64,000 bases of DNA from Microbacterium sp. (GCF_036277215.1 NZ_DASUNI010000344.1:2031-66030); one strand, 5' to 3'. Shown: positions 976 through 48,065, counted from the first letter of the stretch. The notes: generated from the letters alone by a model not told the origin. Program-made: numbers and translations.

Positions 976-1761
976 TCAGGAATGCGGGATGACCGAATCC
1001 TTCTCGGCGATCGCCTTGAGCCACTCGATCGTGCCGTCGGTCATGGGATGCGGAGCATCCAGCGAGTCGAGGAACTCGCGCACCTCGATCATCTCGACCT
1101 CACGCCGCACCGCGTGCTTGGCGGTGCCCTCGAGCAGGTGTTGCACGGCGTCGCGACCGGATGCGCCCAGCTCGGACGCGATCTGGTCGATCAGCCAATC
1201 CTCGGCGCCGAAGATCTGCGCCGCGGTGACGCTCTCGACGACCACCGCCGCCAGCCCCTTCATGAAGACGCTGCGCAGCAGCTTGAACTCCGCGGAGGCC
1301 CCCGCCTGGGCGCCCGCATCCGTCGCCGGCACGCCGAACTCGTCCAGGATCGGCCGCAGTCGTGCGACGCCGGGCCCGCTGAGCAGCAGTGGGGTGTCGA
1401 TCCGCGCGCGAGGAACGGGTGCGAGGATCGCCACATCGACGAACGGGATGCCGCGTGCCGCGGCCACAGCCGCCAGCCGCCGCTTGTCGTCGGGGCCGCT
1501 GGTGTTCATGTCGACGTAGACGCTCGCGGCGTCCATGGCCGGAAGCGACTCGTCGAGGACGGATGCCGCGGACCCGGCGCCCACGAGGCTCAACACGACA
1601 TCGGCGCCACGGACCGTGTGCGGGATGTCGTCGGCGAAGCCGACTCCGTCCACGACGGCCGATGCGCGCAGGTCCGTACCGACGACGACCGCACCGCGGG
1701 CCGACAGGTCGGCGGCATAGATGCTTCCTGCTTCACCGAGTCCCAGCACCGCGACGCGCAT
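976..1761 (-). CDS. NAD(P)-dependent oxidoreductase (6-phosphogluconate-dehydrogenase-like NAD-binding fold)
   Basis: N-terminal Rossmann motif MRVAVLGLGEAGS. I chose the internal ATG at 1761 because GGGAGA lies upstream. The ORF-track start at 1785 adds 8 residues. Confidence 0.7.
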   Translation of the reverse strand: MRVAVLGLGEAGSIYAADLSARGAVVVGTDLRASAVVDGVGFADDIPHTVRGADVVLSLVGAGSAASVLDESLPAMDAASVYVDMNTSGPDDKRRLAAVAAARGIPFVDVAILAPVPRARIDTPLLLSGPGVARLRPILDEFGVPATDAGAQAGASAEFKLLRSVFMKGLAAVVVESVTAAQIFGAEDWLIDQIASELGASGRDAVQHLLEGTAKHAVRREVEMIEVREFLDSLDAPHPMTDGTIEWLKAIAEKDSVIPHS

Positions 1762-1808: not shown

Positions 1809-1857
1809 GTGGTTGGAGCCAGCGGCGGGTGCGCCGGGCGGAGCCGGGAGGAACTCG

Positions 1858-2520
1858 ATGTCGACGATCGTTGAGGATACGGGCGCCGCTGCCGACGCAT
1901 CGGAAGAGCGCGTCACCGACGTCATCCGCAGTGCCATCGTCCGCGGAGAGTACGCCCCCAACCAGCGCCTGATCGAGGCGGACCTGAGCGACACCTTCGC
2001 GGCCAGCCGGGCCACCGTGCGTACCGCGCTGCTCGAGCTCGCCAACGAGGGACTCGTCGAGCGACTGCCCAACCGCGGATCCCGCGTGCGGGCTATCTCC
2101 GTGGAGGAGGCGATCGAGATCCTCGAGGTGCGCATCGGAGTCGAGGGTCTGTGCGCCGCGAAGACCGCGGCGTCGGTCAGCGACGAGCAGGTCGAGGAGT
2201 TCCTGCGCCTCCGCCAGGACATGATCGAGGCCGTCGCCGACGGCGACCTGGTGGAATACTCGCGGCTGAACCAGCTGCTCGATCAGCGGGTGCGCGTGCT
2301 GAGCCGGCATACGACGGCATCCGACGTCCTCGGCAGGCTGCACGCGCAGAGCGTTCGCCACCAGTTCAAGTTGTCGTCGCGCCCGCAGCGCGCCAAGGTG
2401 TCGGTGCTCGAGCACGCCGCCATCATCGATGCGATCGTCGCGCGCGATCCCGATGCGGCAGAGCATGCCGTGCGGGTGCACCTGCAGAGCGTCATCGGCG
2501 CGCTGCGCGACGTGGCCTGA
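1858..2520 (+). CDS. GntR family (FadR/FCD subfamily) transcriptional regulator
   Basis: wHTH segment LIEADLSDTFAASRATVRTALLELANEGLVERLPNRGSRV followed by a helical FCD-like C-terminal domain. ATG at 1858 is preceded by GGGAGG. Confidence 0.85.
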   Translation: MSTIVEDTGAAADASEERVTDVIRSAIVRGEYAPNQRLIEADLSDTFAASRATVRTALLELANEGLVERLPNRGSRVRAISVEEAIEILEVRIGVEGLCAAKTAASVSDEQVEEFLRLRQDMIEAVADGDLVEYSRLNQLLDQRVRVLSRHTTASDVLGRLHAQSVRHQFKLSSRPQRAKVSVLEHAAIIDAIVARDPDAAEHAVRVHLQSVIGALRDVA

Positions 2521-2631: not shown

Positions 2632-3984
2632 TCAGCTCTTGCGGTAGTTCTCGCGAGCGAACGCGGAGTACGGCGCCGGCTGCACGGTAGCCCGGATCGA
2701 CACCTGGCGGTGCTTCTCGACGGCGGGCTTCTGCGAATTGGGATCCTCGCCCCAGACGACCTCGACCTCGGTTCCCGGTGTCGCGTACTCGTTCTCGATG
2801 CTGGCCAACGATACGAAGGCGTGCTCGTTGGTGATGTAGCCGGCGTCGTGCGAGATGCCGACGTCCTTGCCGTCGCGCAGCACCCGATCGACCTGGTGCT
2901 GGCCATAGCGAGCCTTCGGGAAGTCGATGTACTTCGCCGGAACCCCCGGCTCGAGCAGCGACTGGATGGCGGCGGCCACGTCCTCGGGGTTCCACACCAG
3001 GGTCACCTTCTGGCGTGCCTGGTCTGCGGCGTGGCGCTCGAGCGCGGCGCGGCCGATGAAGTCGTGGTCGAACGCGACACTGCGGCCGTAGCCGATGTCG
3101 TACGGCGTGATGTAGAAGTCCGCGATGTCCTCCGAGGCGAAGCTGCCGGCGAGCGAGCCGGCTCGGGCGGCGGGCAGCCATTCGCGGTACGCGTCGGTGC
3201 CCTCGCCGCTGAAGATGGCCGGGATCGGCGAGGGAACCCACGCCGACTCGAGATTCGCGGAGGAGTACGCCTTGGATCCGACGAGCACAAGATCGAGACC
3301 GTCGCCGGCGGCGATCAGGGCGGAGCGGACGCGCTCGCCCTCCGCCCACGGACCGAACAGCTCGAACCCGGGCTGACCGGCCATGCCGTGGCGCAGCGAC
3401 CGCACCTCGAGACCGTCGATCGTGAACGTCGTCATGCCGAAGAACCTGGTGGGCGGCACGGTCGCGCCGGTCGCCTTCTCCATCAGGGCCAGCGCATTCG
3501 GGCCCTGGATCTCGAAGCGGTACAGCTTGGGATCGCCCTCGCGCACGACGGAGGAGGCGTCCCGTTCGAACGATACGTCGTAGTCGCCGGTCTCGCCGTG
3601 GTACTGCACCCAGTCCAGGACCATGTGCCAGCCGACGAGGTCGAACGACTCCTCCGCAAGGTAGAAGAGGATCGCGTCGCCGATCAGGTAGCCCTCGTGG
3701 TTGACGGCGATGTACTGCTTCGCCTGGTCGACCTTGAAGTTCGAGAAGCTGTTGACCCCGACATCCGAGAGGAGCCTCAGCGCATCGGGACCGGTGATGA
3801 ACAGGTCGGTCATGTGGTGCGACTGGTCCAGCAGCGCGACCGAGGTGCGCCACGCCTGCTGCTCGGAGCGCCAGTTGCTGAACTCCGGCGTCACCGGGAA
3901 GACGGTGGGGCGGGCCTGCGCGTTGCGCAGCAGTGTGACGGGGCTTCCAGCGCGGGCGATGGCCTGCGCGAGCGACTCGGGCAT
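2632..3984 (-). CDS. Aminomethyltransferase-fold, tetrahydrofolate-dependent aryl O-demethylase (divergent LigM/DesA-like paralog)
   Basis: Colinear with the two other paralogs in this window and with my recollection of Sphingobium SYK-6 LigM (LLRN.Q...FPV.PEF.NWR.EQ.AWR..V.L.DQSHHM). Start moved to the ATG at 3984, which has GAAGGAG upstream and aligns with the paralog N-termini. Confidence 0.8.
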   Translation of the reverse strand: MPESLAQAIARAGSPVTLLRNAQARPTVFPVTPEFSNWRSEQQAWRTSVALLDQSHHMTDLFITGPDALRLLSDVGVNSFSNFKVDQAKQYIAVNHEGYLIGDAILFYLAEESFDLVGWHMVLDWVQYHGETGDYDVSFERDASSVVREGDPKLYRFEIQGPNALALMEKATGATVPPTRFFGMTTFTIDGLEVRSLRHGMAGQPGFELFGPWAEGERVRSALIAAGDGLDLVLVGSKAYSSANLESAWVPSPIPAIFSGEGTDAYREWLPAARAGSLAGSFASEDIADFYITPYDIGYGRSVAFDHDFIGRAALERHAADQARQKVTLVWNPEDVAAAIQSLLEPGVPAKYIDFPKARYGQHQVDRVLRDGKDVGISHDAGYITNEHAFVSLASIENEYATPGTEVEVVWGEDPNSQKPAVEKHRQVSIRATVQPAPYSAFARENYRKS

Positions 3985-4050
3985 GAGAACTCCTTCGTTC
4001 CGGGTGTCCTTCCATGCTATGCACGGCAGCATATCGAGCCTACGATTCTG

Positions 4051-4067
4051 CATAAGCAGTGCTTATG
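4051..4067. promoter_or_regulatory. LysR-type box, perfect palindrome CATAAGCA-G-TGCTTATG (contains T-N11-A)
   Basis: Read directly. Lies in the 112-nt divergent region between the O-demethylase paralog and the LysR gene. Confidence 0.55.
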
Positions 4068-4096: not shown

Positions 4097-5035
4097 GTGG
4101 ACCTCAATCTCATCCGCGTCTTCGTCGCCGTCTACGAAACGCGCAGCATGACCGCCGCGGCCGCGCGGCTGTATGTGACGCAGCCGGCCGTGAGCCAGGC
4201 GCTCGGCAGGCTGCGGCGGGATCTGAACGACCAGCTGTTCCGTCGGGTCGGGCGCGCGATGGAGCCGACGCCGCTGGCCGTCAGCCTCTTCCCCGGCTTC
4301 CGGGACGGCATCGCGGGCATCGACCGGACGATGGACGGCGTCGCAGGCTTCGATCCGGCGCTCTCACGCCGCCGCTCCCGGATCGCCCTGTCGGAGCTCG
4401 GTGAGATCGGCTACTTCCCGTCGATCTTCCGCGCCGTCCGCGCGAGCGCTCCGCACCTTCGCGTGGAAGCCGTGCCGTTGGACGTGCAGGCGCTCCCGGA
4501 ATGGCTCTCTCAGGGCACGATCGACCTCGCGGTCACCTCGTCACCGGTAGCCGGCGCCTTCGAGCACGTTGTGCTCAAATCGCAGGCGTACGCCGTGCTG
4601 ATGTCGCGTGACCACCCGCTGGCCTCTGCCACGCACGGGTTGGACCTCGAGGACTACATCGCCGCCGACCAGGTGGTGGTGGCGGGCGACTCGGGCCTGC
4701 CGCGTCTCGAGTCGGCGCTTCGCCGCTCCGGCGCGGTGCTGCGCTCCGACGTGGTGCTCAACCACTTCGCCTCGTTGCCGTCGCTCCTCGCGGCGAGCCC
4801 CGACCTGATCGCGACGGTGCCCGACACGATCGCGACCGGCTGGGCGCAGAGCTGGCCGCTCACCGTCCAGCCGCTCCCGCTCGAGATGCCGGCCGTCGAG
4901 GTCTGCCTGTACCGGCGCACCACGACGCAGCAGCTCGGCGCACTGGACTGGCTCTTCGACACGGTCGTGCGCGCCGTCCGCGGGACCCACGGCGAGTTCT
5001 TCGCGATCCACGGGAACGCGGCGCGCGAACGGTGA
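4097..5035 (+). CDS. LysR family transcriptional regulator
   Basis: N-terminus LNLIRVFVAVYETRSMTAAAARLYVTQPAVSQALGRLR is a canonical LysR HTH. 312 aa with a GTG start. Confidence 0.9.
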   Translation: MDLNLIRVFVAVYETRSMTAAAARLYVTQPAVSQALGRLRRDLNDQLFRRVGRAMEPTPLAVSLFPGFRDGIAGIDRTMDGVAGFDPALSRRRSRIALSELGEIGYFPSIFRAVRASAPHLRVEAVPLDVQALPEWLSQGTIDLAVTSSPVAGAFEHVVLKSQAYAVLMSRDHPLASATHGLDLEDYIAADQVVVAGDSGLPRLESALRRSGAVLRSDVVLNHFASLPSLLAASPDLIATVPDTIATGWAQSWPLTVQPLPLEMPAVEVCLYRRTTTQQLGALDWLFDTVVRAVRGTHGEFFAIHGNAARER

Positions 5036-5078: not shown

Positions 5079-6605
<1,527 letters not shown>

Positions 6606-6712
6606 CTAGGGGTATGGTTCGCTGGGTTCAACGAGGACGGCAGCGCTCGACGCAGAGCTGGACGACGCCCTCGGCCCTCGGATGGGCACCTACTTGAGAC
6701 AGGAGTCCCCTC

Positions 6713-7468
6713 TTGGCTGAGACAGCCCGTTCGCTTCTGGTTGTGAGTGCCCACGCGGGTGATTTCGTGTGGCGCGCGGGTGGCGCGATCGCGGCGGCGA
6801 CGATGCGGGGTGAGCGTGCCACCGTCGTGTGCGTGAGCTATGGCGAGCGAGGCGAGTCGGCCTCGCAGTGGCTGCAGGGCAAGTCGCTGGAGGAGATCAA
6901 GACCATCCGTCGGGACGAGGCGACGGCGGCGGCATCCGCTCTGGGCGCCGAGATCGAATTCCTGGATGCCGGCGACTACCCGCTGATCGAATCCACGGAG
7001 ACGATCGACAAGCTCATCGACGTGTACCGGCGCACCCAGCCCACGGTGGTGCTGACCCATCCGCTGGCCGACCCGTACAACGGCGACCATCCCGCCGCGG
7101 CGCGCATGGCCCTGCAGGCTCGCGTGCTGGCCCAGGCCATCGGTGTCGCGAACTCCGACGGCACCTATCCCACGACGGAAGAGATCATCGGGGCGCCGCC
7201 GGTGTTCTTCTTCGAACCGCACCAGCCGGAGCAGTCCGACTTCAAGCCGAACGTGCTGCTGGACATCACCGAGGCGTTCGCGCTGAAGCAGAAGGCGATG
7301 GAGTGCCTGCCCGCGCAGAAGCACATGTGGGAGTACTACACGTCCCTCGCGATCCGCCGCGGGGTGCAGGTCAAGCGCAACGCCGGCCCCAACCTCGGCC
7401 TCCCCGTCGACACCAAGGGCGAGGCGTACATGCGGTACTACCCGCAGGTCACGGACATCCTCGAATGA
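6713..7468 (+). CDS. galB: PIG-L/LmbE-family hydrolase, 4-oxalomesaconate hydratase-like (GalB-like)
   Basis: Motifs LVVSAHAGDFVWRAGG, YGERGES, FFEPHQPEQ and WEYYT match my recollection of Pseudomonas putida GalB. TTG start with AGGAG 8 nt upstream. Confidence 0.7.
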   Translation: MAETARSLLVVSAHAGDFVWRAGGAIAAATMRGERATVVCVSYGERGESASQWLQGKSLEEIKTIRRDEATAAASALGAEIEFLDAGDYPLIESTETIDKLIDVYRRTQPTVVLTHPLADPYNGDHPAAARMALQARVLAQAIGVANSDGTYPTTEEIIGAPPVFFFEPHQPEQSDFKPNVLLDITEAFALKQKAMECLPAQKHMWEYYTSLAIRRGVQVKRNAGPNLGLPVDTKGEAYMRYYPQVTDILE

Positions 7469-8175
7469 GCTCACCCCACGTCGTCGTCACCGACATCCAG
7501 AGAGCGGATTCCGCGACCATCGACGCGCTCGCCCCGCTCGGATCGGCGACCGTCCACGAGGCGATGGGCCGCATCGGGTACGCCGGTCCCCGGATCCGCC
7601 CGATCCAGCAGGACGCCGCGATCGCCGGCTCCGCGATCACCGTCTCGTGCGCCCCGGGCGACAACCTCATGGTGCACGCGGCGATCGAGCAGTCCCGAGC
7701 CGGCGACGTGATCGTCGTGGTGCCCGTGACCGACTCGCCCTACGGGTTCATCGGCGAGCTGATGGCCACCCAGATGCAGGTCCGCGGCGTCCGCGCGTAC
7801 GTGACCTCCGGCGGTGTGCGCGACACCGGCGAGCTGCGGAACATGGGCTTCCCGGTGTGGACCGCGCACGTCAGCGCCGAGGGCACCGTGAAAGACACCC
7901 CGGGATCGGTGAACGTGCCCGTCGTGCTCGGCGGTGTCCAGGTCAACCCCGGCGACATCGTGGTGGCCGACGACGACGGCGTGACGATCGTGCCCCGTGA
8001 CCGCGCCGTCGCCACCCTCCAAGCCGCGCAGGCGCGCGCCGCCAAGGAGGCCGCCAACCGGCTCCGCTACCAGGCCGGCGAGATCTCGATGGACCTCAAC
8101 GATCTCCGCCCCGTGCTCGCCGACCTCGGCGTGGCATTCGTGTCCCAGGAGGAATACGAGGATGGCGGTCGCTGA
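7465..8175 (+). CDS. galC: RraA-like class II aldolase, 4-carboxy-4-hydroxy-2-oxoadipate / HMG aldolase (GalC/LigK-like)
   Basis: GSATVHEAMGRIG and GDIVVADDDGVTIVP motifs of the RraA/HMG-aldolase family. ATGA overlap with the upstream stop. Confidence 0.8.
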   Translation: MSSPHVVVTDIQRADSATIDALAPLGSATVHEAMGRIGYAGPRIRPIQQDAAIAGSAITVSCAPGDNLMVHAAIEQSRAGDVIVVVPVTDSPYGFIGELMATQMQVRGVRAYVTSGGVRDTGELRNMGFPVWTAHVSAEGTVKDTPGSVNVPVVLGGVQVNPGDIVVADDDGVTIVPRDRAVATLQAAQARAAKEAANRLRYQAGEISMDLNDLRPVLADLGVAFVSQEEYEDGGR

Positions 8176-9241
8176 CGCGGTGCGCGACGGCATCCGCTGC
8201 ATGCTGATGCGCGGCGGCACGTCGAAGGGCGCGTACTTCCTCGCCGACGATCTGCCCGCCGACCCCGCGGAGCGCGACGACCTCGTCCTGCGGATCATGG
8301 GCAGCCCCGATCCGGCCCAGATCGACGGGCTCGGCGGCGCCCATCCGCTCACCAGCAAGGTCGCGATCGTCTCACTGTCCGCCGAAGACGGCGTCGACGT
8401 CGACTACCTGTTCCTGCAGGTCGGTGTCGACCAGCCGACCGTGAGCGACGCCCAGACATGCGGCAACCTCCTCGCCGGCATCGGCCCGTTCGCGGTCGAG
8501 CGGGGCCTCGTGACCGCCGATTCGCCGACCACGACCGTCCGCATCCGGCTGATCAACACGGGCGACCTGGCCACCGAGACGTTCGCGACACCCGGCGGCC
8601 GGGTCGACTACGACGGGGACGCCGCCATCGACGGCGTTCCGGGAACCGCCGCGCCCATCGAGATCGAGCTCAGCGGCAGCCCGGACGCACGCCTCCTGCC
8701 CACCGGCCGGGTCGTCGACGACCTCGACGGCCACCGCGTCACGCTGATCGACAACGGAATGCCGGTGGTGCTGCTGCGCGCCGACGAGTTCGGCGTCGCC
8801 GGCGACGAGAGCCCCGCCGAGCTCGAAGCCCGGCAGGAGCTCAGGGGGCAAGTGGAGCGCATCCGGCTGCTGGCGGGTCCCCGGATGGGCCTCGGCGACG
8901 TCGCCGGCGCGACGGTGCCCAAGATGTTCCTGCTCTCTCCACCGCGACACGGTGGTGCCATCTCCACACGCGCCTTCATCCCCACGCGGGTGCACACCTC
9001 GATCGGCGTGCTGATGGCCGCGTCGGTGGCCGCCGGCATCCGCATTCCCGGTGTCGTCGGCGCCGATCTCGCGCAGCTGTCCGAAGCCGGTGCCGACGGG
9101 ATCGAGCACCCCGGCGGCACCTTCCCGGCACGCGTGCGGATCGAGCTCGACGACGACGGCACTTGGTCGGCGACATCCACGTCGCTGCGAACCGCCCGCA
9201 AGGTCTTCGACGGCCTCGTCTTCCCCCGCCCGCGCACGTAG
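8162..9241 (+). CDS. galD: PrpF-family isomerase, 4-oxalomesaconate tautomerase-like (GalD-like)
   Basis: N-terminus IRCMLMRGGTSKGAYF is diagnostic of the PrpF/GalD family. Overlaps the upstream gene by 14 nt. Confidence 0.75.
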   Translation: MAVADAVRDGIRCMLMRGGTSKGAYFLADDLPADPAERDDLVLRIMGSPDPAQIDGLGGAHPLTSKVAIVSLSAEDGVDVDYLFLQVGVDQPTVSDAQTCGNLLAGIGPFAVERGLVTADSPTTTVRIRLINTGDLATETFATPGGRVDYDGDAAIDGVPGTAAPIEIELSGSPDARLLPTGRVVDDLDGHRVTLIDNGMPVVLLRADEFGVAGDESPAELEARQELRGQVERIRLLAGPRMGLGDVAGATVPKMFLLSPPRHGGAISTRAFIPTRVHTSIGVLMAASVAAGIRIPGVVGADLAQLSEAGADGIEHPGGTFPARVRIELDDDGTWSATSTSLRTARKVFDGLVFPRPRT

Positions 9242-9280
9242 CGCACCGCCCCTTTTCCGCCCGCCAGAGAGGACCCTCCC

Positions 9281-10240
9281 ATGACCGATTACACGTCGTT
9301 CGATGTCGCGCACATCGGCAACATCGAGCTGTTGACCGCGAAGTTCGACGAGAGCCTGTGGTTCTTCCGCGACCTGCTCGCGATGCGCGTGGTCGCGGAG
9401 GCCGGAGACTCGGTGTACCTGCGCACGTGGGACGAGTATCAGCGGTACACGATCAAGCTCACCGCCGCCGAAGACGCCGGCGTCGGGCGCACCACGTTCC
9501 GCACCACCAGTCAGGAGGCGCTGGAGCGGCGGGTCGCCGCCATCGACGGGTTCGGTCTGGGCGAGGGATGGGTGGACGGCGAGCAGGGCACCGGCCCGAC
9601 CTACCTGTTCCGCGATCCGGACGGCCACTCGATGGGGATCTACTACGAGAGCGAGCGGTACGTCGCCACCGACGACAAGCCGGCCCTCAAGAACCAGGCC
9701 TCCGCGTTCCCCGGACGCGGAGTGAACGCCCGGCGCCTGGATCACATCAACTACCTCGCCAAGGACGTGGTGGCCAACGGCGAGTTCATCGCTCAGGCGC
9801 TCGGCGGCCGGGAGAGCGAGCGGATCGCCATCGACGGCGGCGGCTACGCCGCCTGGTGGTTCCACTTCAACAACAAGTCCTACGACATCGTCTACTCCGA
9901 CGATTGGCTCAAGCACGGCAACCGCCTGCACCACATCGCGTTCGCCCCCGACACCCGGGAGGACATCCTCAAGGCTGCCGACATCTTCCTCGAGAACGGC
10001 ATCCACATCGAGTCCGGTCCCCACAAGCACGCCATCAACCAGACGTTCTTCCTGTACGTGTGGGAACCGGGCGGGAACCGCATCGAGTTCGCCAACGCAG
10101 GCGCCCGTCTGCTGCTGGACCCCGACCAGCCGGTCGTCGAGTGGTCCGCCGAAGAGCGCAAGAAGGGCCAGGCGTGGGGCATGAAGACCATCGAGACCTT
10201 CCACACCCACGGCACACCCGTGGTGAAGGGCGACCACTGA
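9281..10240 (+). CDS. Type I (vicinal-oxygen-chelate) extradiol dioxygenase, catechol 2,3-dioxygenase-like
   Basis: Two-domain 319-aa protein colinear with XylE-type enzymes. Candidate 2-His-1-Glu triad in LDHINYL, RLHHIAF and GGNRIEF. Confidence 0.8.
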   Translation: MTDYTSFDVAHIGNIELLTAKFDESLWFFRDLLAMRVVAEAGDSVYLRTWDEYQRYTIKLTAAEDAGVGRTTFRTTSQEALERRVAAIDGFGLGEGWVDGEQGTGPTYLFRDPDGHSMGIYYESERYVATDDKPALKNQASAFPGRGVNARRLDHINYLAKDVVANGEFIAQALGGRESERIAIDGGGYAAWWFHFNNKSYDIVYSDDWLKHGNRLHHIAFAPDTREDILKAADIFLENGIHIESGPHKHAINQTFFLYVWEPGGNRIEFANAGARLLLDPDQPVVEWSAEERKKGQAWGMKTIETFHTHGTPVVKGDH

Positions 10241-10360
10241 GGTCGAGGTCGGATCGGGTCGTCCCAGCCCCCGGGACGACCCCTCGATCGGGAGTGGCTC
10301 GATTCGTAGCATCGGAGGTACGGAGCCCTGGCCGCTCCGCGCCTGCAGAAACGAGACGAC

Positions 10361-11407
10361 ATGCCTGAGACCTTCCGCGTCGCGCTGACGCGCGACTTCC
10401 GCTCCGACGACGGGACGATCGGCTGGGGAGACATCGGCATGGCCGAGCTCGAAGCGGAGCCGGACGTGGTGTGGGAGTACCTCGACGTCGACGAGACACC
10501 CCTCTCGCCGGGCGCCCTCGCGGGCTACGACGGCGTGATGGTGCTCGGCAACGCGCTGGACGCGCGGTCGCTCGAAGGTGCCGAACGGCTGAAGGTGGTC
10601 GCCCGGTTCGGGGTGGGCTACGACACGATCGACCTCGACGCGTGCACGACAGCCGGCATCCCGGTCACCATCACACCCGACGGCACACGCGGACCGATGG
10701 CTCTCGCGGCCGTCACGCTGCTGCTGGCCGTCGCACACAACGTGCGCCAGAAGGATCGCATCGTCCGCGAGCGCCGCGACTGGTCGGAGCGCTACGAGTA
10801 CAACGGCTTGGGGCTGCCGGGCAAGACGCTGGGCATCATCGGGTTCGGCAACATCGGCCGCGAGGTCAGCCGCCTGCTCGCACCGCTGGGCATGCGCGTC
10901 CTGGCGTTCGACCCCTACCTGGATGCCGCGAAGGCGACCGAGCTGGGGGCCGAGCTGGTCTCGATCGAAGAGCTCATGGCCTCCTCCGACGCGATCGTCG
11001 TGACGGCCGCGCTCACACCCGAGACCCGGCACATCGTGAACGCGGAACGACTCGCACTCATGAAGCACAACGCCGTGATCGTCAACGTCGCGCGCGGGCC
11101 TCTCATCGATCAGAATGCCCTCGCCGAGGTGCTCGCCGCCGGCCGCATCCGCGGGGCGGGCCTCGATGTTCTCGAGAAGGAGCCCGCCGACGACGACGAT
11201 CCGCTGCTGGACTGCGACAACGTCCTGCTCTCGCCGCACGCGACGGGCTGGACCGACCAGCTCGCGTACGGCAACGGCTCGGGATGCGTGCGGTCCCTCC
11301 TCGAGGTCAAGCGCGGCTTCCGTCCGTCGCACGTCGTGGTCAACCCCGCCTCGCTCGAGCACGAGCGATGGGCAGGGGTTCCCGACGCCCCGAAGACCGT
11401 GTCGTGA
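10361..11407 (+). CDS. D-isomer-specific 2-hydroxyacid dehydrogenase (NAD-binding)
   Basis: GKTLGIIGFGNIGREV Rossmann motif, plus VNVARGPLID and LDVLEKEP signatures. Confidence 0.85.
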   Translation: MPETFRVALTRDFRSDDGTIGWGDIGMAELEAEPDVVWEYLDVDETPLSPGALAGYDGVMVLGNALDARSLEGAERLKVVARFGVGYDTIDLDACTTAGIPVTITPDGTRGPMALAAVTLLLAVAHNVRQKDRIVRERRDWSERYEYNGLGLPGKTLGIIGFGNIGREVSRLLAPLGMRVLAFDPYLDAAKATELGAELVSIEELMASSDAIVVTAALTPETRHIVNAERLALMKHNAVIVNVARGPLIDQNALAEVLAAGRIRGAGLDVLEKEPADDDDPLLDCDNVLLSPHATGWTDQLAYGNGSGCVRSLLEVKRGFRPSHVVVNPASLEHERWAGVPDAPKTVS

Positions 11408-12186
11408 TGGTGCGCCGCAGAAGCCTCCGCGCCCGCGTGCTGGGCGGCGAGACGGTCGTGGGCACGTTCCTGCTCGCCTTCCCCGCCGTCGCCGTCGCGC
11501 GCGCGGCGGCCGGTGCCGGTGCCGACTTCGTGCTGATCGACGGCGAGCACACCGGCTTCGGCTGGGAGACCATGACGCCGGTCCTGACCGCGACCCGCGC
11601 CGGAGGCTCGACGCCGTTCGTGCGCGTGCCCTCGGCATCCCGCGAGAACATCGCCCTGGCCCTGGACATGGGGGCCGTCGGGCTGATGATCCCGATGGTG
11701 GGCACTGCCGACGAGGCCGCGGCGATCGCGTCGTGGGCGCACTACCCGCCGCAGGGCATCCGCGGCACGATGTTCGGCCTGGCCGCTCACGACTTCGGCG
11801 AGGTCGAGCCGGTCGCGGCGATGAAGAAATCGAACGCCGAGACGATCGTGATGGTGCAGATCGAGACAGCCGAGGCACTCGAGAACGTCGAGGAGATCGC
11901 GGCGGTGCCGGGCGTGGACATCCTGTGGGTCGGTCACTTCGACCTCACCACGAGCATGGGCATCCCCACGCAGTTCGACCACCCGCTCTACCTCGCGGCG
12001 CTGGAGCGCATCGTGACCGCCGGCAAGGCGAACGGCAAGCCGGTGGGGTTCCTCACGAGCGGCCCGGACGACGCGCGCTCGCTCGTCGAGCGGGGCTTCA
12101 CGGTGCTCGCCTACGGAAGCGACCTCGGGATCTACCGCCAGGCCCTGCGTTCCGGACTCGAGGGCATCGCCGAAGCCCTCGGCTGA
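11407..12186 (+). CDS. HpcH/HpaI family class II pyruvate aldolase
   Basis: DFVLIDGEHTG, MIPMVGTADEA and VQIETAEALENV motifs. The ATG overlaps the upstream TGA. Confidence 0.85.
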   Translation: MVRRRSLRARVLGGETVVGTFLLAFPAVAVARAAAGAGADFVLIDGEHTGFGWETMTPVLTATRAGGSTPFVRVPSASRENIALALDMGAVGLMIPMVGTADEAAAIASWAHYPPQGIRGTMFGLAAHDFGEVEPVAAMKKSNAETIVMVQIETAEALENVEEIAAVPGVDILWVGHFDLTTSMGIPTQFDHPLYLAALERIVTAGKANGKPVGFLTSGPDDARSLVERGFTVLAYGSDLGIYRQALRSGLEGIAEALG

Positions 12187-12195
12187 ACCGCGGGC

Positions 12196-12984
12196 TCAGC
12201 CCTCCACGACACGCGCCCGCAGGCGCTGCACCACGTCGTCGTCGAGTCCCGCTTCGCGCAGCACCACGGCCGCGCCACCGCGCTCCTCGTCGAGGATCGC
12301 GAGCATCTCGACCATGGCGTCGTGCTCGGCGCCCAGCAGCGGGCTGACCGGTCCGCGACCCTCGGCCGCGGCGCGGAAGAACGCATCCGACTCCCCCATG
12401 AGGTGGCCGATGGAGGCGCTCACCCGCGCCATGATGCGGGGCACCGCCGTCGACGAGAGCGCATAGTCCGTCGCGATGTCCTCCTCGTCGGCGCCCAGCA
12501 CCGACAGCAGGGCGGCCGCGAAGATGCCGGTGCGGTCCTTGCCCGCGGCGCAGTGGAAAAGCACCCCGCCCGGGGCGTCTGCGATCGCGCGGATGCCCTC
12601 GGCCAGCGTGTCCGCCTCGGCCACGAGCGTCGCCGCGTAGTACTCCCCCACTGTCCTGGGCGTGGCCGAGTCCTCACGCAGGTGCTGCAGGAACTCGTCG
12701 GGTTCCGCACCGCCGCGCAGCAGCGACATCCGTCGGTAGGTCACGTCGTACCGGCCCAGCGGGCCGCGTCCGGTGTGTTCGGCCTCGGCGGGCGAGCGCA
12801 GATCGATGATGGTGCGGATGCCGCGGTCGAACAGCTCGCGCGCCTGCTCGTCGGGCACCGTGGACACGTCGTCGCTGCGGAAGAGGTGTCCCGGCGCGAT
12901 CACGCCGCCCTCGACGGCGATGCCGCCGAGATCCCGGAGGTTGTTCAGCGGGGTCTCTTCGATCGGTCGAGCCGGAGCGCTCAT
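12196..12984 (-). CDS. Tyrosine/dual-specificity phosphatase-like protein (CX5R active-site loop)
   Basis: HCAAGKDRTG P-loop and NLRDLGG N-terminal motif. Only the last 262 codons of the 565-aa track ORF are used. ATGA overlap with the upstream oxidoreductase. Confidence 0.75.
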   Translation of the reverse strand: MSAPARPIEETPLNNLRDLGGIAVEGGVIAPGHLFRSDDVSTVPDEQARELFDRGIRTIIDLRSPAEAEHTGRGPLGRYDVTYRRMSLLRGGAEPDEFLQHLREDSATPRTVGEYYAATLVAEADTLAEGIRAIADAPGGVLFHCAAGKDRTGIFAAALLSVLGADEEDIATDYALSSTAVPRIMARVSASIGHLMGESDAFFRAAAEGRGPVSPLLGAEHDAMVEMLAILDEERGGAAVVLREAGLDDDVVQRLRARVVEG

Positions 12985-14135
12985 GCGGGGGTCCTCTCGG
13001 GGGTGCGACGCCCGGGAGAGGCGGCGATGCGCGCGTCCAGGAACGCGTCGAATTCGGCGGGGTCGAGGGGCAGCGACACGGTGGCCCGTCTGGTCGACGA
13101 GAGCGCGGCGGCGGCGATGACCTCGACCGCATCGCGCGCCGCGCGCGCGGTGGTCAGCGGTTCGCCGTCCTCGGCCCACGCCGTCGCGAAGTCCGAGTAG
13201 ACCTCGGCGTGCGTGCCGCCCCCGTGGGGCACGGCGCGGCGCCAGTCCGATACCTCGTAGGCATCGAAGTGCCCGCCCGCCGTGGCCGCGAAGTCCCGGA
13301 AGTCCCCATGGCCCGAGCGGATGTCGAGGCCGTCCTGAGACAGCCGAAGCGAGCCTCCGGAGCCGAAGATCTCGGTGCGGTTCCCGTCGAGTCGCGCGGC
13401 GCTGGTGATGTGCACGGTCGCCGTGGCGCCGCCCGTCCATTCGAGCAGGACGTCGGCGGTGTCTTCGGTCTCGATCGGCTGCACGAGCGTGCGAAGGTTC
13501 GCGGTGACGGCATCCGGTCGCCCGAGGAGGTGGACGAGCACGTCGATGTCGTGCAGACCCTGGTTGAGCAGCACTCCTCCGCCCTCGCCCTGCCAGGTGC
13601 CGCGCCACGGCGTGTCCACGTAGTAGCTCGCGCGTTTGGGATAGCTGGCGGTCACGACGGCACGGTGGACGGCACCCAACTCCCCGGCCGCGATCCGGCG
13701 GCGTGCTTGCACCACCTCGGCGCGCAGGCGGTGCTGCTGCACGACGGCCACCTGCCGACCGGAGGCCTCGACGGCGGCGGTGAGCGCATCGATTTCGCTG
13801 AGGCGTGCGGCGAGGGGCTTCTCGACGAGCACCCAGAGCTGCGCGTCCAGGCAGCGCTGGACGAGCTCCGCGTGCAGGGGATGCGGTGCGCACACGACCG
13901 CGGCATCCGCATCGAGTGCGAGCAGTTCGTCGAGGGTGTCGGCGACCTTCCAGCCGTGCTCGGCGGCGACCTCGGCCGCGCGGGACGGTTCTGCGTCGAA
14001 GACCCCCACCACCTGGACGCCGGTGGCCAGGATCGCGGGGACGTGCGCCGCCTGGAAGATGTGCGATCCGGCCGCGATCACCACGACCCGCAGGCCTGCT
14101 GGATCGGACGGCGCGGGGTCTGCGCCGGCGGTCAC
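12981..14135 (-). CDS. Gfo/Idh/MocA family NAD(P)-dependent oxidoreductase
   Basis: LRVVVIAAGSHIF Rossmann start and the VLVEKPLA motif. The GTG at 14135 overlaps the ABC ATPase stop (GTGA). Confidence 0.8.
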   Translation of the reverse strand: MTAGADPAPSDPAGLRVVVIAAGSHIFQAAHVPAILATGVQVVGVFDAEPSRAAEVAAEHGWKVADTLDELLALDADAAVVCAPHPLHAELVQRCLDAQLWVLVEKPLAARLSEIDALTAAVEASGRQVAVVQQHRLRAEVVQARRRIAAGELGAVHRAVVTASYPKRASYYVDTPWRGTWQGEGGGVLLNQGLHDIDVLVHLLGRPDAVTANLRTLVQPIETEDTADVLLEWTGGATATVHITSAARLDGNRTEIFGSGGSLRLSQDGLDIRSGHGDFRDFAATAGGHFDAYEVSDWRRAVPHGGGTHAEVYSDFATAWAEDGEPLTTARAARDAVEVIAAAALSSTRRATVSLPLDPAEFDAFLDARIAASPGRRTPERTPA

Positions 14136-18239: not shown

Positions 18240-19832
18240 CTACTCGGCCTCGTACCCGATCCGGTCGGTGTACAGCGCACCGCGGCCCATGGACTGCAGC
18301 CCGACCACGTCGGCGCCGTGCAGGAACGAGCGGTAGTCGATGCCGAAGACCACGATGGGCACCTGGTCCACGTAGACCTCCTGCACCTTCTGCAGCGCCG
18401 CGATCCGGTCCTCGTCGGTCGTGGCCTCCTGCGCGTCGCTGATCGCCGATGTCATGTCAGCGTCGTCGAAGTTCGCGAAGTTGTCGAGACCACCCACGCC
18501 GAACAGGTTGCCGAAGCCGACCTGCGGGCTGTTGAGGTCGAACACGCCGGGATAGAAGGTGACGTCGAAGTCGTCCTTGTCGTATGCGGCGGCGCGCCAC
18601 TCCGGGATCGGGATCTGCGTGAGGTTGACCGTCACGCCGTCGAGCTCCTGCAGCGTCAGCTGGAACAGCTCACCGGCACGGACGAGCTCCGGCACGCCCG
18701 CGATGAGCAGGTCGATCGTGAAATCGGTGCCTTCGCCGGTGATCTCGTCGACCAGCGCCTGAGCGTCCTCCACGTTCTGCTCGGGCAGTGCCAGGTCGGC
18801 GTCGTAGTAGGGCGAGGTGTCGGGGAACAGCGCGGTGCTGCCCTCGGCCGCCGGGTCCTGCGTCAGCGTCTGCACGAGCTCGGTCGGGTTCACAGCCAGC
18901 TGCACGGCCTGACGGGCGCGCACGTCGCTGAACAGGTCGGAGGTCGTGTTGAAGACGAAGTGGCGGATTCCTCCGGATGCGACCGGGAACACTCCGACCG
19001 ACGGGTTGTCGGCATCGGCGATCCACTGGAACGGGTAGCCGTTCATGATCTGCGCATCGCCCTGGACGACCGAGGTCACGCGCTGAGCGGGGTCGGCGAC
19101 CAGCTGGAAGGTCAGCGTGTCGAGATACGGCTTGCCCTCGTCCCAGTAGTCCGGGTTCTTGGCGAAGGTCTCGCCGACCGCGGGGTCCCACTGCTCGAGT
19201 GTGAACGGGCCCGCGCCGATGGGTTCGGTCAGCGGCGTACCCGCCGCCGGGAAGGACGCCGGCGAGCCGATGAAGGCGATCGAGTCGGCGATCTGGATGT
19301 CGAGCACCGGGTTCGTCTCGTTCGAGGCGATCTCCAGCGTGGTCTCGTCCACGACGGTCGTCGCGAAGGTCGAGGCGACGCGGACGGCGCCCAGGTTGTT
19401 GGCCGGATCGGCGAAGCGATCCCAGTTGTCCTTGACCGCCTGCGCGTCCAGCGCCTCGCCGTCGGTGAAGGTCAGACCCTCCCGCAGCGTCAGCGTCCAG
19501 GTGTCGCCGCCGTCCTCCGTGGTCAGGCTCTCGGCGAGGCCGGGTTCGATCTCACCGTCGGTGTTCACGGTGAGGAGCGCACCGTAGACCGCGTACAGAC
19601 GGTCCCACTGCACGCCCGGGAAACTGCCGGTGGACGAGCCGGGATCCCATGTGCTCATCGCTCCCGCGACGAGGATCGTGAGCTCGCCGCCCTCGGCAGG
19701 GGTCTCTGCACTCGGAACGGTGGCGCTGGGTGATGCGGTGCCCCCGCCGCCGTCGCCGCTGCAGGCCGACAGCGTGAGCGCTGCGGCTGCGGCGACCGCG
19801 AGAGCGGAGAGCCGGAATCGGGACATCTTCAT
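18240..19832 (-). CDS. ABC transporter substrate-binding lipoprotein, family 5 (peptide/opine/oligosaccharide type)
   Basis: Signal peptide plus lipobox (LTLSACSG). Family-5 SBP architecture. Start placed at MKMSRF, residue 165 of the track ORF. Confidence 0.9.
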   Translation of the reverse strand: MKMSRFRLSALAVAAAAALTLSACSGDGGGGTASPSATVPSAETPAEGGELTILVAGAMSTWDPGSSTGSFPGVQWDRLYAVYGALLTVNTDGEIEPGLAESLTTEDGGDTWTLTLREGLTFTDGEALDAQAVKDNWDRFADPANNLGAVRVASTFATTVVDETTLEIASNETNPVLDIQIADSIAFIGSPASFPAAGTPLTEPIGAGPFTLEQWDPAVGETFAKNPDYWDEGKPYLDTLTFQLVADPAQRVTSVVQGDAQIMNGYPFQWIADADNPSVGVFPVASGGIRHFVFNTTSDLFSDVRARQAVQLAVNPTELVQTLTQDPAAEGSTALFPDTSPYYDADLALPEQNVEDAQALVDEITGEGTDFTIDLLIAGVPELVRAGELFQLTLQELDGVTVNLTQIPIPEWRAAAYDKDDFDVTFYPGVFDLNSPQVGFGNLFGVGGLDNFANFDDADMTSAISDAQEATTDEDRIAALQKVQEVYVDQVPIVVFGIDYRSFLHGADVVGLQSMGRGALYTDRIGYEAE

Positions 19833-20640: not shown

Positions 20641-20686
20641 CCTCCTCGATGGTCGGGAGTCGGTCGAGTCCGAATCCGTCCATCGG

Positions 20687-20732
20687 AGCATAAGACGGGG
20701 TCGACCATCGCGTCAACCACATTGTCAACAAT
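20687..20732 (-). promoter_or_regulatory. Predicted promoter of the cupin-ABC operon plus TTGTTGACAAT motif (copy B)
   Basis: Minus-strand reading ATTGTTGACAAT-GTGG-TTGACG-18 nt-TATGCT. Motif at 20721-20732, -35 at 20711-20716, -10 at 20687-20692. Confidence 0.5.
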
Positions 20733-20766
20733 CCTGTCCGCACAATGGCTCGGGCGTGGCTACACT

Positions 20767-21477: not shown

Positions 21478-21505
21478 GACTCGCTGATTCCGAAAGCGGA
21501 CAAAG

Positions 21506-21550: not shown

Positions 21551-21618
21551 GAGGACTGAGGTCGTCGGGAATCACCGCGGCCGGTCCACCCGCCTGCGAA
21601 CGATGGAGTTCTCGCCCC

Positions 21619-29739: not shown

Positions 29740-30636
29740 ATGGAGATCGTCGATGCGCAGGTGCATCTGAACATGATCGGGCTCGAGGCAGGGCTGGTGG
29801 CGATGGATGCCGCCGGCGTCGACGCCCTGGTGATCGACGAGTTCTGGGGCTTCGACGATCGTGGACGACCCCTGCCGTCGTCCCCATTGCCGGGCGGGTC
29901 GGTGCGGCACATCAGCCCGATCGGCGAACTGGCCGTGGCGCGGCACCCCGATCGCTTCGCCTACCTCACGCGAGCGCAGCCGGACGATCCCGAGCTGGAT
30001 CGTGTGATCGGCGAGCTGCGCACCGAACCGGGACGACTCGCTCTGCGCATCCTTCCCTTCGTGCCGTTTCCGCCGAGCGCCGGCGAGCGTCGCGAGAACG
30101 ACGAAGCCGTCGACGCCTTCGCCGCCGAGCTGGTCGGGGGTCGCTACGACCGGTACTTCGAGCTTGCGCAGGATGCCCGCGTGCCGGTGTTCATCCAGGT
30201 CAACGGCATCGGCATCGCCGGCCGGCTCGACGCGATCCGCGAGGTCGCAGCCGCTCATCCGGCGTTGCCGGTCATCGTCGACCACCTCGGCGTCGCGATG
30301 CCCGGATCCCGTGCGCACCGCCCCGACCGGTTCGCGCAGTTCGCCGAAGTGTGCCGGCTGGCGGAGCTGGCGAACGTGCACGTCAAGTGGGGGCATGCGA
30401 CGCGCCTGAGCGAGGAGCCGTACCCGTTCTCCGACGTCGCCCGGGCGCTGCGGAGCGTCGTGGACGCGTTCGGCGCCGACCGGGTCATGTGGGCGAGCGA
30501 CTGGACGCTCGATCTGGAATGGAGCTCGTGGGCGGAGTCGTTCGGGTACATCCGCGACGATGGCGTCCTCAGTGAGGCCGACCGCGCCGCGGTGCTCGGC
30601 GGCACCGTGCGCCGGGTGCTGGAATGGCCGCGCTGA
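29740..30636 (+). CDS. Amidohydrolase-2 family metal-dependent hydrolase (lactonase/decarboxylase-type TIM barrel)
   Basis: IVDAQVHL N-terminal metal motif, VIVDHLG, and the DRVMWASDW C-terminal motif. Confidence 0.75.
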   Translation: MEIVDAQVHLNMIGLEAGLVAMDAAGVDALVIDEFWGFDDRGRPLPSSPLPGGSVRHISPIGELAVARHPDRFAYLTRAQPDDPELDRVIGELRTEPGRLALRILPFVPFPPSAGERRENDEAVDAFAAELVGGRYDRYFELAQDARVPVFIQVNGIGIAGRLDAIREVAAAHPALPVIVDHLGVAMPGSRAHRPDRFAQFAEVCRLAELANVHVKWGHATRLSEEPYPFSDVARALRSVVDAFGADRVMWASDWTLDLEWSSWAESFGYIRDDGVLSEADRAAVLGGTVRRVLEWPR

Positions 30637-44792: not shown

Positions 44793-45704
44793 GTGTCAAA
44801 GACCACACACGTCATGGCCAATCGCCAGGCGGCTCTGGAGCTGGTGTCCGGCTACTCCCTCGAGATGACGGGCAAGGATGTTCCCGGCCTGATGGAGGCG
44901 AAGGACACGATCCCGGCGGGGACGAAGATCAACGTCACGTTCCTGGGCAACGAGGATCTCGAGATGCGGGTGTCGGCGGCCAAGGCGGTCCGCGAGCTGG
45001 GCTTCATCCCGGTTCCGCACATCTCGGCCCGGCGGCTGTCGTCGCGGGCGCAGTTGGAGGAGTTCCTGTCCCGGCTGCAGGATGTCGGGGCGACCGAGAG
45101 CGTGTTCGTCGTGGGCGGCGACCCGGCCACGCCGGAGGGGCCGTACGAGGACTCCTATGACGTGATCCGCACCGGCCTGCTGCTGGACTACGGCGTCAAG
45201 GAGGTCTCGATCGCCGGGTACCCCGAGGGTCACCCGGACATCTCGACCGACGTGCTGTGGCGGGCGTTGGAGGACAAGTCGCTGTCGCTGGCGCAGCAGG
45301 GTCTGGGCGCGACGATCCTGACCCAGTTCGCGTTCGACACCGACCCGGTGCTGGCGTGGATCGAGGCGGTCCGCGCCCGCGGCATCCAGAGCACGATCCG
45401 GGTCGGAACGCCCGGACCTGCCGGGATCAAGCGGTTGATCGGCTTCGCCCGCCGTTTCGGGGTCGGAGCGAACGCGATGATCGTCAAGAAGTACGGCTTC
45501 TCGCTGACCAACCTGATGGGCACCGCCGGACCCGACAAGTTCGTCACCGACCTGTCCGCGCTGCTCGCCGAGACGGCACCGGTCACCGCCGCAGAAGGTG
45601 CGACGACCCCCGCCGCAGGACCTGTCAAACTGCACTTCTATACGTTCGGCGGGTTGCTGGCCACCTCGGAGTGGGCGCGGGACTACGCCGCCGCCCAGTC
45701 CTGA
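44793..45704 (+). CDS. metF: Methylenetetrahydrofolate reductase (MetF-like)
   Basis: MTHFR fold segments (NVTFLGNEDL, FVVGGD, AGYPEGHP, TQFAFD). Start is ambiguous: GTG 44793 has AAGGA upstream, with alternatives at ATG 44772 or 44814. Confidence 0.8.
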   Translation: MSKTTHVMANRQAALELVSGYSLEMTGKDVPGLMEAKDTIPAGTKINVTFLGNEDLEMRVSAAKAVRELGFIPVPHISARRLSSRAQLEEFLSRLQDVGATESVFVVGGDPATPEGPYEDSYDVIRTGLLLDYGVKEVSIAGYPEGHPDISTDVLWRALEDKSLSLAQQGLGATILTQFAFDTDPVLAWIEAVRARGIQSTIRVGTPGPAGIKRLIGFARRFGVGANAMIVKKYGFSLTNLMGTAGPDKFVTDLSALLAETAPVTAAEGATTPAAGPVKLHFYTFGGLLATSEWARDYAAAQS

Positions 45705-45714
45705 GGAGAGGCCG

Positions 45715-46599
45715 ATGAGCCTGCACAACGAAGCCCTGCGCGACCACGCCTGTCTGATCGTGCACGGCCCGGACCAGCCCGGGATCGTCGCGGCGATCAC
45801 GTCGCTGATCACCCGCAACCAGGGCAACATCGTGTCGTTGGACCAGTACTCCGACGACGCGTTCGGCGGGGCGTTCTTCCAGCGGGTGGTGTTCCACCGT
45901 GCCGACCTGGCCGCGACGATGCCCGAGATCGAAGCGGACCTGGAAAAGACGCTCGGTGCGCTCGGACTGGAGTGGACCCTGACCGATCAGTCGATTCCGA
46001 AGCGGATGGCGATCCTGGCGTCCACCTCGGACCACTGCCTGCTGGAGCTGCTCTGGCGGCACCGCCGCGGCGAGTTGCCGGTGACCATTCCGATGGTGAT
46101 CTCCAACCACACCAACACCGCCGAGGACGTCCGCTCCTTCGGGATCCCGTTCTTCCACGTCCCCTCCCAGGGGCCGGACAAGTCCGCCGCCGAAGCCCGG
46201 ATCCTGGAACTGCTCAAGGGCAACGTCGATTTCATCGTCCTGGCCCGCTACATGCAGATCATCTCCGAGGACTTCCTCGAAGACGTCGCCGTCCCGGTGA
46301 TCAACATCCACCACTCGTTCCTGCCCGCCTTCATCGGCGCGGCCCCGTATCGCAAGGCCAAGGAACGCGGCGTGAAGCTGATCGGCGCGACCAGCCACTA
46401 CGTCACCAAAGACCTCGACGAGGGCCCGATCATCGAGCAGGACGTCGCCCGCGTGAACCACGCGATGGATGCCGCCGACCTGCAGTCCCGCGGCGCCTAC
46501 GTCGAGCGCGCCGTGCTCTCCCGTGCCGTGCAGTGGCACGCCCAAGACCGCGTCATCCGACACGGCAACCAGACCATCGTCTTCACCGACCGACCCTGA
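45715..46599 (+). CDS. purU: Formyltetrahydrofolate deformylase
   Basis: N-terminal ACT domain (LIVHGPDQPGIVAAITS) plus formyltransferase core (ISNH, LARYMQI, INIHHSFLPAF.GA.PY). Confidence 0.9.
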   Translation: MSLHNEALRDHACLIVHGPDQPGIVAAITSLITRNQGNIVSLDQYSDDAFGGAFFQRVVFHRADLAATMPEIEADLEKTLGALGLEWTLTDQSIPKRMAILASTSDHCLLELLWRHRRGELPVTIPMVISNHTNTAEDVRSFGIPFFHVPSQGPDKSAAEARILELLKGNVDFIVLARYMQIISEDFLEDVAVPVINIHHSFLPAFIGAAPYRKAKERGVKLIGATSHYVTKDLDEGPIIEQDVARVNHAMDAADLQSRGAYVERAVLSRAVQWHAQDRVIRHGNQTIVFTDRP

Positions 46600-46622
46600 C
46601 CACCACGGACGCCTCGACCTGA

Positions 46623-48065
<1,443 letters not shown>

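Follow-up and report, generated by a model that had tools for sequence, protein, structure and literature searches.

A VOC-type extradiol dioxygenase encoded with gallate-type lower-pathway enzymes in Microbacterium: a candidate non-orthologous replacement of the ring-opening step

To our knowledge, all characterised gallate, 3-O-methylgallate and protocatechuate 4,5-dioxygenases belong to the LigB superfamily. We describe here a four-gene operon in a 64,000-nucleotide stretch of DNA from Microbacterium sp. (NZ_DASUNI010000344.1:2031-66030; the whole stretch is called the window below), in which three genes of a gallate-type lower pathway are followed by a gene for a two-domain VOC-type extradiol dioxygenase. 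The gal cluster of Pseudomonas putida KT2440 has, like the window, a GalB-type PIG-L hydratase, an RraA-fold aldolase for CHA (4-carboxy-4-hydroxy-2-oxoadipate) and a PrpF-fold 4-oxalomesaconate (OMA) tautomerase, and the same chemistry, from OMA to pyruvate and oxaloacetate, is expected of both. Ring cleavage in KT2440 is performed by GalA of the LigB superfamily, whereas the VOC enzyme stands in that place in the window operon. Unlike the gal cluster, the window cluster appears to be fed by tetrahydrofolate (THF)-dependent demethylases.

The syringate pathway of Sphingobium SYK-6 shares with the window LigM, a DesA-like paralog, LigU, LigK and a one-carbon module of the MetF/PurU type, but it uses DesB and LigAB, both of the LigB superfamily, where the window has the VOC enzyme. 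Its hydratase is of the LigJ type and that of the window is of the GalB type, while sister actinobacterial loci pair LigJ with the same VOC dioxygenase. One reaction catalysed by both superfamilies has a precedent in homoprotocatechuate 2,3-dioxygenase, which is known in VOC and LigB versions. PcaA of Pseudarthrobacter phenanthrenivorans Sphe3 is a single-subunit type II protocatechuate 4,5-dioxygenase that also cleaves gallate (PMC8431788). It resembles the enzyme proposed here in being actinobacterial and gallate-cleaving and in yielding keto OMA from gallate, but it belongs to the LigB/PCAD superfamily and lies in a complete cluster of the pcm type that includes a LigC-type dehydrogenase, and the VOC operon of the window has no such partners. 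The enzyme families and the pathway are known; a type I VOC dioxygenase at a gallate/protocatechuate 4,5-type ring opening, conserved widely, appears to be undescribed. A literature search, with subscription journals outside its reach, returned no paper on a VOC or type I gallate dioxygenase or on this Micrococcales cluster.

Operon structure and lower-pathway enzymes

Four genes lie head to tail and tightly packed on the plus strand of the window, between positions 6713 and 10240:

6713..7468, plus strand: PIG-L protein, GalB-type OMA hydratase by homology; 251 aa, TTG start
7465..8175, plus strand: RraA-like protein, GalC/LigK-type CHA aldolase/oxaloacetate decarboxylase by homology; 236 aa
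8162..9241, plus strand: PrpF-like protein, GalD/LigU-type OMA tautomerase by homology; 359 aa
9281..10240, plus strand: VOC protein, two-domain type I extradiol dioxygenase by homology; 319 aa

The TGA of galB and the ATG of galC overlap as ATGA, the reading frames of galC and galD share 14 nt, and the start of the VOC gene, preceded by AGAGAGGA, lies 39 nt behind the PrpF stop. The four genes form one operon. The G+C content of the window is about 69-70%, and the nearest genomes found in a genome scan are those of uncultured Actinomycetota metagenome-assembled genomes (MAGs) and Microbacterium species. The stretch is present solely in soil-metagenome DNA runs, and 0 RNA runs contain it.

The Pfam domains of the four proteins are PF02585 (PIG-L), PF03737 (RraA-like), PF04303 (PrpF-like) and PF00903 (VOC). 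The best match of the PIG-L protein in the PDB is GalB (5cgz), with 255 bits over residues 6-248, i.e. over the full length. The TTG start at 6713 is supported by the alignment of the N-terminus with GalB, which runs from residue 6. NCBIfam holds no equivalog model for the GalB-type hydratase, and this assignment was made from the PIG-L fold together with the full-length similarity to 5cgz. The RraA-like protein passes the NCBIfam model for CHA aldolase (NF006731, 287.5 bits against a cut-off of 179), stays below the cut-off of the narrower model TIGR02798 ligK_PcmE (261 against 304 bits), and matches best in the PDB the HMG (4-hydroxy-4-methyl-2-oxoglutarate)/CHA aldolase 3noj, with 242 bits. 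The PrpF-like protein passes the OMA tautomerase model NF033377 (457 bits, cut-off 440), its best PDB match being LigU (6p3j/6p3h, 374 bits). Judged by these matches, the lower pathway of the window is the gallate/OMA pathway. A preliminary description of this DNA had named the first three products as GalB, GalC and GalD homologs, translationally coupled and followed by the VOC gene. Its coordinates and its account of the four genes are correct, and the homology is borne out by curated cut-offs that are passed or by characterised structures as best matches.

The VOC dioxygenase and searches for LigB-type genes

The VOC protein is not of the LigB family, having PF00903 only and no PF02900; it may work like GalA, but it would do so as no member of the GalA family. 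Two tandem VOC modules in a two-domain fold were found in the PF00903 matches, in full-length alignments with 9wgj, 3lm4 and 7q2a, and in an AlphaFold model with a predicted template modelling score (pTM) of 0.80. Foldseek gave this model a TM score of 0.84 to both AphC and RHA1 3lm4, using a fold library that ends on 2026-04-08 and does not contain entry 9wgj. The best NCBIfam model is TIGR03211 catechol_2_3, on which the protein scores 300 bits, below the cut-off of 320.2. Its identity is about 50% to the Geobacillus zalihae protein 9wgj (351 bits), 36% to AphC (7q2a), 29% to the VOC-type HpaD and 25% to NahH. The preliminary description had proposed to place the enzyme among the type I subfamilies, and in a neighbour-joining tree its subfamily stands well apart from NahH and HpaD, with pathway-linked members on both of its main branches.

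AphC, RHA1 3lm4, XylE/NahH and homoprotocatechuate 2,3-dioxygenase (HPCD)/MndD share with the window protein the two-domain VOC fold, the 2-His-1-carboxylate triad and the equivalents of His246 and Tyr255. The window protein differs from them in its low identity (25-36%) and in having Tyr201 in place of a catalytic histidine. The genomic partners of these type I enzymes are meta-pathway or hpa genes, whereas those of the window VOC gene are OMA-pathway genes. The closest solved relative, 9wgj, belongs to the same subfamily and has the same tyrosine column, and its gene lies near PIG-L and RraA-like genes. It was deposited as 'Catechol 1,2-dioxygenase' though it is of the extradiol type with a VOC fold, and relatives bear the same automatic name in several sources. 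No paper on 9wgj or its substrate was found in the literature searched, which excluded subscription journals.

The alignment with a real enzyme of the NahH/XylE type confirms the His/His/Glu triad that had been described as apparently intact: His155, His218 and Glu269 align with His153, His214 and Glu265 of NahH, and they are invariant in 14 relatives. In addition, His250 and Tyr259 match the conserved His246 and Tyr255 (XylE numbering). Tyr201 (codon 9881-9883) fills the column of the second-sphere catalytic histidine, His199 in XylE/NahH and His200 in HPCD, with the context 'KSYDIVY' compared with 'KAHDVAF' in NahH and 'GVHDFAL' in HpaD; the acid-base histidine is absent from this position. 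Tyrosine occupies the column in every subfamily member examined, 9wgj included, in any genomic context, while the AphC/3lm4 group retains histidine there. Because it is subfamily-wide, Tyr201 is alone uninformative on the substrate. We infer that the enzyme is active despite Tyr201. Two attempts to read specificity from single residues were given up. The comparison of pathway-linked members with those of Ktedonobacter and Bradyrhizobium, which are few negatives, gave no clean column (e.g. Asn253 versus Gln/Ala). The column of the carboxylate-binding Arg243 of HPCD is not conserved, being Ser245 in the window protein, and makes an inference of acidic substrates impossible.

We searched for LigB-type genes with LigB and LigA seeds from a Roseomonas plasmid, using phmmer with the --max option on six-frame open reading frames. 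No homolog was found in the 64-kb window, the best E-value being 0.35. Pfam scans of 40 of the 62 genes called in the window found no PF02900; the other called genes are evident transport or housekeeping genes as judged from their sequences. A scan of one genome per species gave 80 loci with flanks of 10 kb, and none of them has a LigB-type gene within 10 kb of the VOC gene. Among the other loci compared, a LigB/LigA match was found only in the Roseomonas seed locus, where LigAB adjoins the VOC gene. That a LigB-type gene is nowhere to be seen in the 64 kb, and that no dehydrogenase for 4-carboxy-2-hydroxymuconate semialdehyde (CHMS) or hydrolase for 2-pyrone-4,6-dicarboxylate (PDC) adjoins the operon, had been stated from the sequence; both points hold, the operon having no gene of the LigC or LigI type.

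The LigC- or LigI-related genes of the window are a DUF1932 oxidoreductase gene 5 kb upstream and a gene for a weak LigI-like amidohydrolase 20 kb off. The latter (29740..30636) was rejected as a LigI candidate, being weakly lactonase-like with no counterpart in the other loci. The Gfo/Idh/MocA gene at 12981..14135 was rejected as a LigC/LigI candidate as well: its best models are of the iolG type, it lies in an ABC-transporter cluster, and it is not conserved.

Conserved linkage, proposed pathway and competing explanations

Linkage was counted in those 61 actinobacterial loci in which the VOC gene is flanked by 4 kb or more on each side. In 60 of them an OMA hydratase and a CHA aldolase are encoded no more than 6 kb from the VOC gene, the hydratase being of the GalB type in 55 loci and of the LigJ type in 5. 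The sole exception is a Sinomonas locus (L009), in which the VOC gene lies beside LigM. The tautomerase GalD is also present in 53/61 loci, and LigM lies no more than 10 kb from the VOC gene in 54/61. The order LigU-LigJ-LigK-VOC is found in Corynebacterium-like, Kocuria, Yaniella and A. globiformis loci, and the LigJ-type gene is a clear ortholog (546 bits to 2gwg). Two unrelated hydratases thus swap around the same VOC gene, as would be expected of a VOC enzyme that forms the substrate shared by both. The linkage of the VOC gene to the lower pathway is not due to chance.

The linkage extends to other phyla. The VOC gene of Geobacillus zalihae is divergent, across a GntR gene, from genes for DUF6282, PIG-L, RraA-like and DUF1932 proteins, an MFS transporter and an esterase; compared with the window, this cluster lacks GalD and LigM and adds DUF6282, DUF1932, the transporter and the esterase. 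The Lysinibacillus macroides cluster encodes the VOC, PIG-L and RraA-like proteins with RidA, a TRAP transporter and GntR, and has neither dehydrogenase nor hydrolase. A Thermus oshimai plasmid carries VOC, GntR, DUF6282, PIG-L, CHA aldolase and DUF1932 genes beside pobA. On pAt of Agrobacterium tumefaciens Kin003, a conjugative At plasmid, PIG-L, VOC, ligK and OMA tautomerase genes are followed by a gene of the tannase/feruloyl esterase family (9893-11623 in locus L089). Tannase releases gallate. Three Microbacterium loci (L014, L030 and L042) have weaker tannase homologs (28-29%) at a distance of 5-7 kb from the VOC gene. The linkage does not hold everywhere: an Alicyclobacillus VOC locus has just a transporter and RidA. 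A RidA/YjgF gene adjoins the VOC gene at L086 9454-9834, L085 8050-8430 and L083 9157-9579, i.e. in Lysinibacillus and Alicyclobacillus, both without GalD, and in the Corynebacterium-like locus; its product may be a candidate alternative isomerase or tautomerase.

The genes upstream of the operon, and a one-carbon module further downstream, are the following:

5079..6485, minus strand: LigM, THF-dependent vanillate/3-O-methylgallate O-demethylase (NF047885, 927 bits, cut-off 580)
2632..4053, minus strand: DesA-like third THF-dependent aryl O-demethylase, candidate syringate O-demethylase (440 bits to LigM in the PDB)
4097..5035, plus strand: LysR-family regulator, divergent from the DesA-like gene (PF00126 and PF03466)
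1813..2520, plus strand: GntR/FCD-family regulator (PF00392 and PF07729)
976..1761, minus strand: NAD_binding_2/DUF1932 NAD(P) oxidoreductase (PF03446 and PF09130)
44793..48065, plus strand: C1-recycling module with MetF-like gene 44793..45704, PurU 45715..46599 and second LigM 46653..48065

The first of these is divergent from the operon and scores 704 bits against the structure of Sphingobium LigM (5tl4). The DesA-like protein falls below both relevant cut-offs (589 against 800 bits for NF047633 DesA, 518 against 580 for the LigM model), and is best described as a probable THF-dependent aryl demethylase of uncertain specificity; together with its LysR gene it recurs in many Microbacterium loci. 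A GntR gene is also found with the VOC cluster in Micrococcales, Geobacillus, Thermus and Lysinibacillus. In the one-carbon module, the MetF-like protein matches PF02219 weakly, PurU scores 351 bits on TIGR00655 (cut-off 286) and the second LigM 873 bits on NF047885 (cut-off 580). Such a set of genes for MetF, PurU and LigM is the customary equipment for one-carbon recycling in THF-dependent demethylation, and in Pseudarthrobacter and Arthrobacter loci the MetF and PurU genes lie directly 3' of the VOC gene. By its gene content, the neighbourhood is apparently suited to converting methoxylated gallate derivatives to gallate. The preliminary description had made no use of the upstream LigM and DesA-like genes, which strengthen the reading that gallate is the substrate.

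We propose, with a probability of roughly 0.6, that the VOC-type dioxygenase stands in for GalA/DesB and converts gallate to OMA by ring cleavage; the proposal draws on sequence and genomic context, and both the substrate and the product given to the enzyme are predicted ones. The operon would then encode the ring cleavage and the lower half of a syringate/3-O-methylgallate/gallate pathway. The DesA-like enzyme may demethylate syringate to 3-O-methylgallate, and LigM would demethylate the latter to gallate, THF being the methyl acceptor in both steps. The VOC enzyme would open gallate in the extradiol manner, beside its vicinal hydroxyl groups. As there is a hydroxyl on the carbon that is cleaved, the triacid OMA would be formed directly, and no aldehyde, so that neither a dehydrogenase nor a lactone hydrolase would be required. 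GalD/LigU would isomerise OMA, the GalB-type hydratase would add water to give CHA, and the GalC/LigK aldolase would split CHA into pyruvate and oxaloacetate. Gallate cleavage is reported to yield OMA in its keto form, for which a tautomerase is needed (PMC8431788), and this fits the presence of GalD. The earlier suggestion of a non-orthologous replacement of the ring-opening step is supported by the identities of the lower-pathway enzymes, the synteny and the LigM/DesA-like context.

Several observations weigh against gallate cleavage by the VOC enzyme. A tyrosine stands in place of the catalytic His199/His200, and 9wgj, the closest relative with a solved structure, bears only the name of a catechol dioxygenase. 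The Ktedonobacter member lies within a classical meta-cleavage cluster of the DmpFG type, and nine Bradyrhizobium loci have unrelated contexts without any partner genes, which means that specificity varies within the subfamily. The DUF1932 dehydrogenase, dispensable for gallate cleavage, is recurrent, and the Thermus cluster adjoins pobA, whose product makes protocatechuate. Homologs of DUF1932 are found near the VOC gene in 29 of the 61 actinobacterial loci and in Thermus (40% identity), Agrobacterium, Roseomonas and Geobacillus (e.g. L081 3183-4109, L090 10855-11622, L089 414-1301 and L088 2888-3766). DUF1932 comes together with DUF6282 in Geobacillus, Thermus and Citricoccus/Micrococcus, and a LigI-like amidohydrolase occurs in Roseomonas, Kocuria and A. 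globiformis loci. DUF1932 and the DUF6282 or LigI-like proteins are candidates for a non-orthologous CHMS dehydrogenase and PDC hydrolase, respectively. In view of the recurrent dehydrogenase, a substrate of the protocatechuate type has to be reckoned with.

The strongest alternative, which we consider unlikely though deserving attention, is that the VOC enzyme acts on protocatechuate as a type I 4,5-dioxygenase, either on this substrate alone or with dual activity on gallate as in LigAB. LigM would make protocatechuate from vanillate, which it also demethylates by the definition of the NF047885 family; the VOC enzyme would form CHMS, the DUF1932 protein would oxidise it as an analogue of LigC, and DUF6282 or a LigI-like hydrolase elsewhere in the genome would give OMA, with GalD, GalB and GalC finishing the route. 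The spread of DUF1932 genes beside the VOC cluster across phyla would suit such a route, as would the Geobacillus and Thermus clusters that combine DUF6282, PIG-L, RraA-like and DUF1932 genes, the adjacent pobA in Thermus and the LigI-like amidohydrolase in the three genera named above. However, DUF6282 or LigI-like genes lie within 10 kb in just 6/61 loci, with none in the window or in most Microbacterium loci, and about half of the loci are without DUF1932. Neither dehydrogenase nor hydrolase is seen in Lysinibacillus, the Corynebacterium-like locus L083 and several Microbacterium clusters, and the roles of DUF1932 and DUF6282 are themselves candidate roles only.

A quite improbable alternative is that the VOC enzyme cleaves 3-O-methylgallate as DesZ does, the resulting methyl ester either cyclising to PDC or being de-esterified to OMA. 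The DesA-like demethylase would make 3-O-methylgallate, the Geobacillus cluster has an esterase gene, and a linear ester route is described in Pseudomonas sp. NGC7 (PMC12314914). LigM, the most conserved neighbour of the VOC gene, would however strip that methyl group before cleavage, and the window cluster is without esterase or PDC hydrolase. The least probable explanation of all is that the protein is what its annotation says, an ordinary catechol or alkylcatechol 2,3-dioxygenase, unrelated to its neighbours or detoxifying catechols derived from demethylation, as its best NCBIfam model (catechol_2_3, 300 bits), its nearest characterised structures (AphC and a dihydroxybiphenyl dioxygenase) and the DmpFG context of the Ktedonobacter member would allow. 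Against this, the score does not reach the family cut-off of 320, and genes of the meta pathway, such as those for a hydroxymuconate-semialdehyde dehydrogenase or hydrolase, are missing from the vicinity. Nor would one readily expect of a bystander a linkage that is seen in 60/61 species, in four phyla and within the Agrobacterium operon.

A wider proposal, which we offer tentatively and with the odds somewhat against it, concerns the whole 'KSYD' VOC subfamily, whose members occur in Actinomycetota, Bacillota, Thermus and Rhizobiales. This subfamily, with tyrosine in place of the catalytic histidine, might be a widespread and so far unrecognised type I class that cleaves gallate and/or protocatechuate at the 4,5 position, with DUF1932 and DUF6282 replacing LigC and LigI.

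Flanking features and implications

Two non-coding features border the operon:

6573..6626, no strand assigned: conserved element between the divergent genes ligM and galB (at least 80% conserved columns in a 41-locus alignment)
10241..10289, plus strand: G+C-rich hairpin directly 3' of the VOC stop, inner stem 10257-10265/10273-10281

The conserved element is about 55 nt long, reads ATTGTAnnCAnnnTnTTGACCA...TGnTTCnCTG in the 41 aligned loci, and is probably a promoter together with a regulator-binding site or operator. No long inverted repeat was found in the ligM/galB intergenic region. The hairpin is at most a possible operon end, as the z-score of its 95-nt stretch is not significant against shuffled sequences and a T-tail is absent. 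A scan for canonical terminators found none after the VOC gene, and its two matches within coding sequence are at chance level.

Directly downstream of the operon, at 10361-12186, lie genes for a D-2-hydroxyacid dehydrogenase and an HpcH/HpaI-type aldolase. They were rejected as parts of the pathway, being shared only with a near-identical MAG locus (L001), and they probably form a separate unit. The one-carbon module is part of a segment at 44388-48766, 35 kb from the operon, that encodes dodecin, the MetF-like protein, PurU, the second LigM and a PadR regulator. Elsewhere in the window, an island at 19927-28903 encodes a cupin, a GntR protein, a UPF0261 protein, two PEP_hydrolase-like proteins, a second cupin, two aldo/keto reductases and a GMC oxidoreductase. 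Two family-5 solute-binding paralogs with similar N-termini are encoded at 18240-19658 and 30702-32126, both on the minus strand. One of them is in a Dpp/Opp-type ABC operon beside the Gfo/Idh/MocA oxidoreductase gene, and the other lies beside amidohydrolase_2, aldehyde dehydrogenase and alcohol dehydrogenase genes.

If the VOC enzyme cleaves gallate, it would be a clean non-orthologous displacement at the committing step of the breakdown of syringyl lignin and tannin. It would account for a possible use of gallate or syringate by many Gram-positive soil bacteria that seemingly lack galA and desB, correct the widespread annotation "catechol 2,3-dioxygenase / VOC family protein", and alter the scoring of lignin- and tannin-derived carbon turnover in metagenomes. 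It would also offer a new ring-opening enzyme for lignin valorisation, thermostable in Geobacillus and Thermus. With its tyrosine in place of His199/His200, the subfamily lends itself to testing the acid-base role generally accepted for this residue in extradiol catalysis. Should the wider proposal be true, the 'KSYD' subfamily with DUF1932 and DUF6282 would make up a complete parallel 4,5-cleavage pathway built from different protein families, whose genes are now mis-annotated as a catechol 2,3-dioxygenase plus unknowns.

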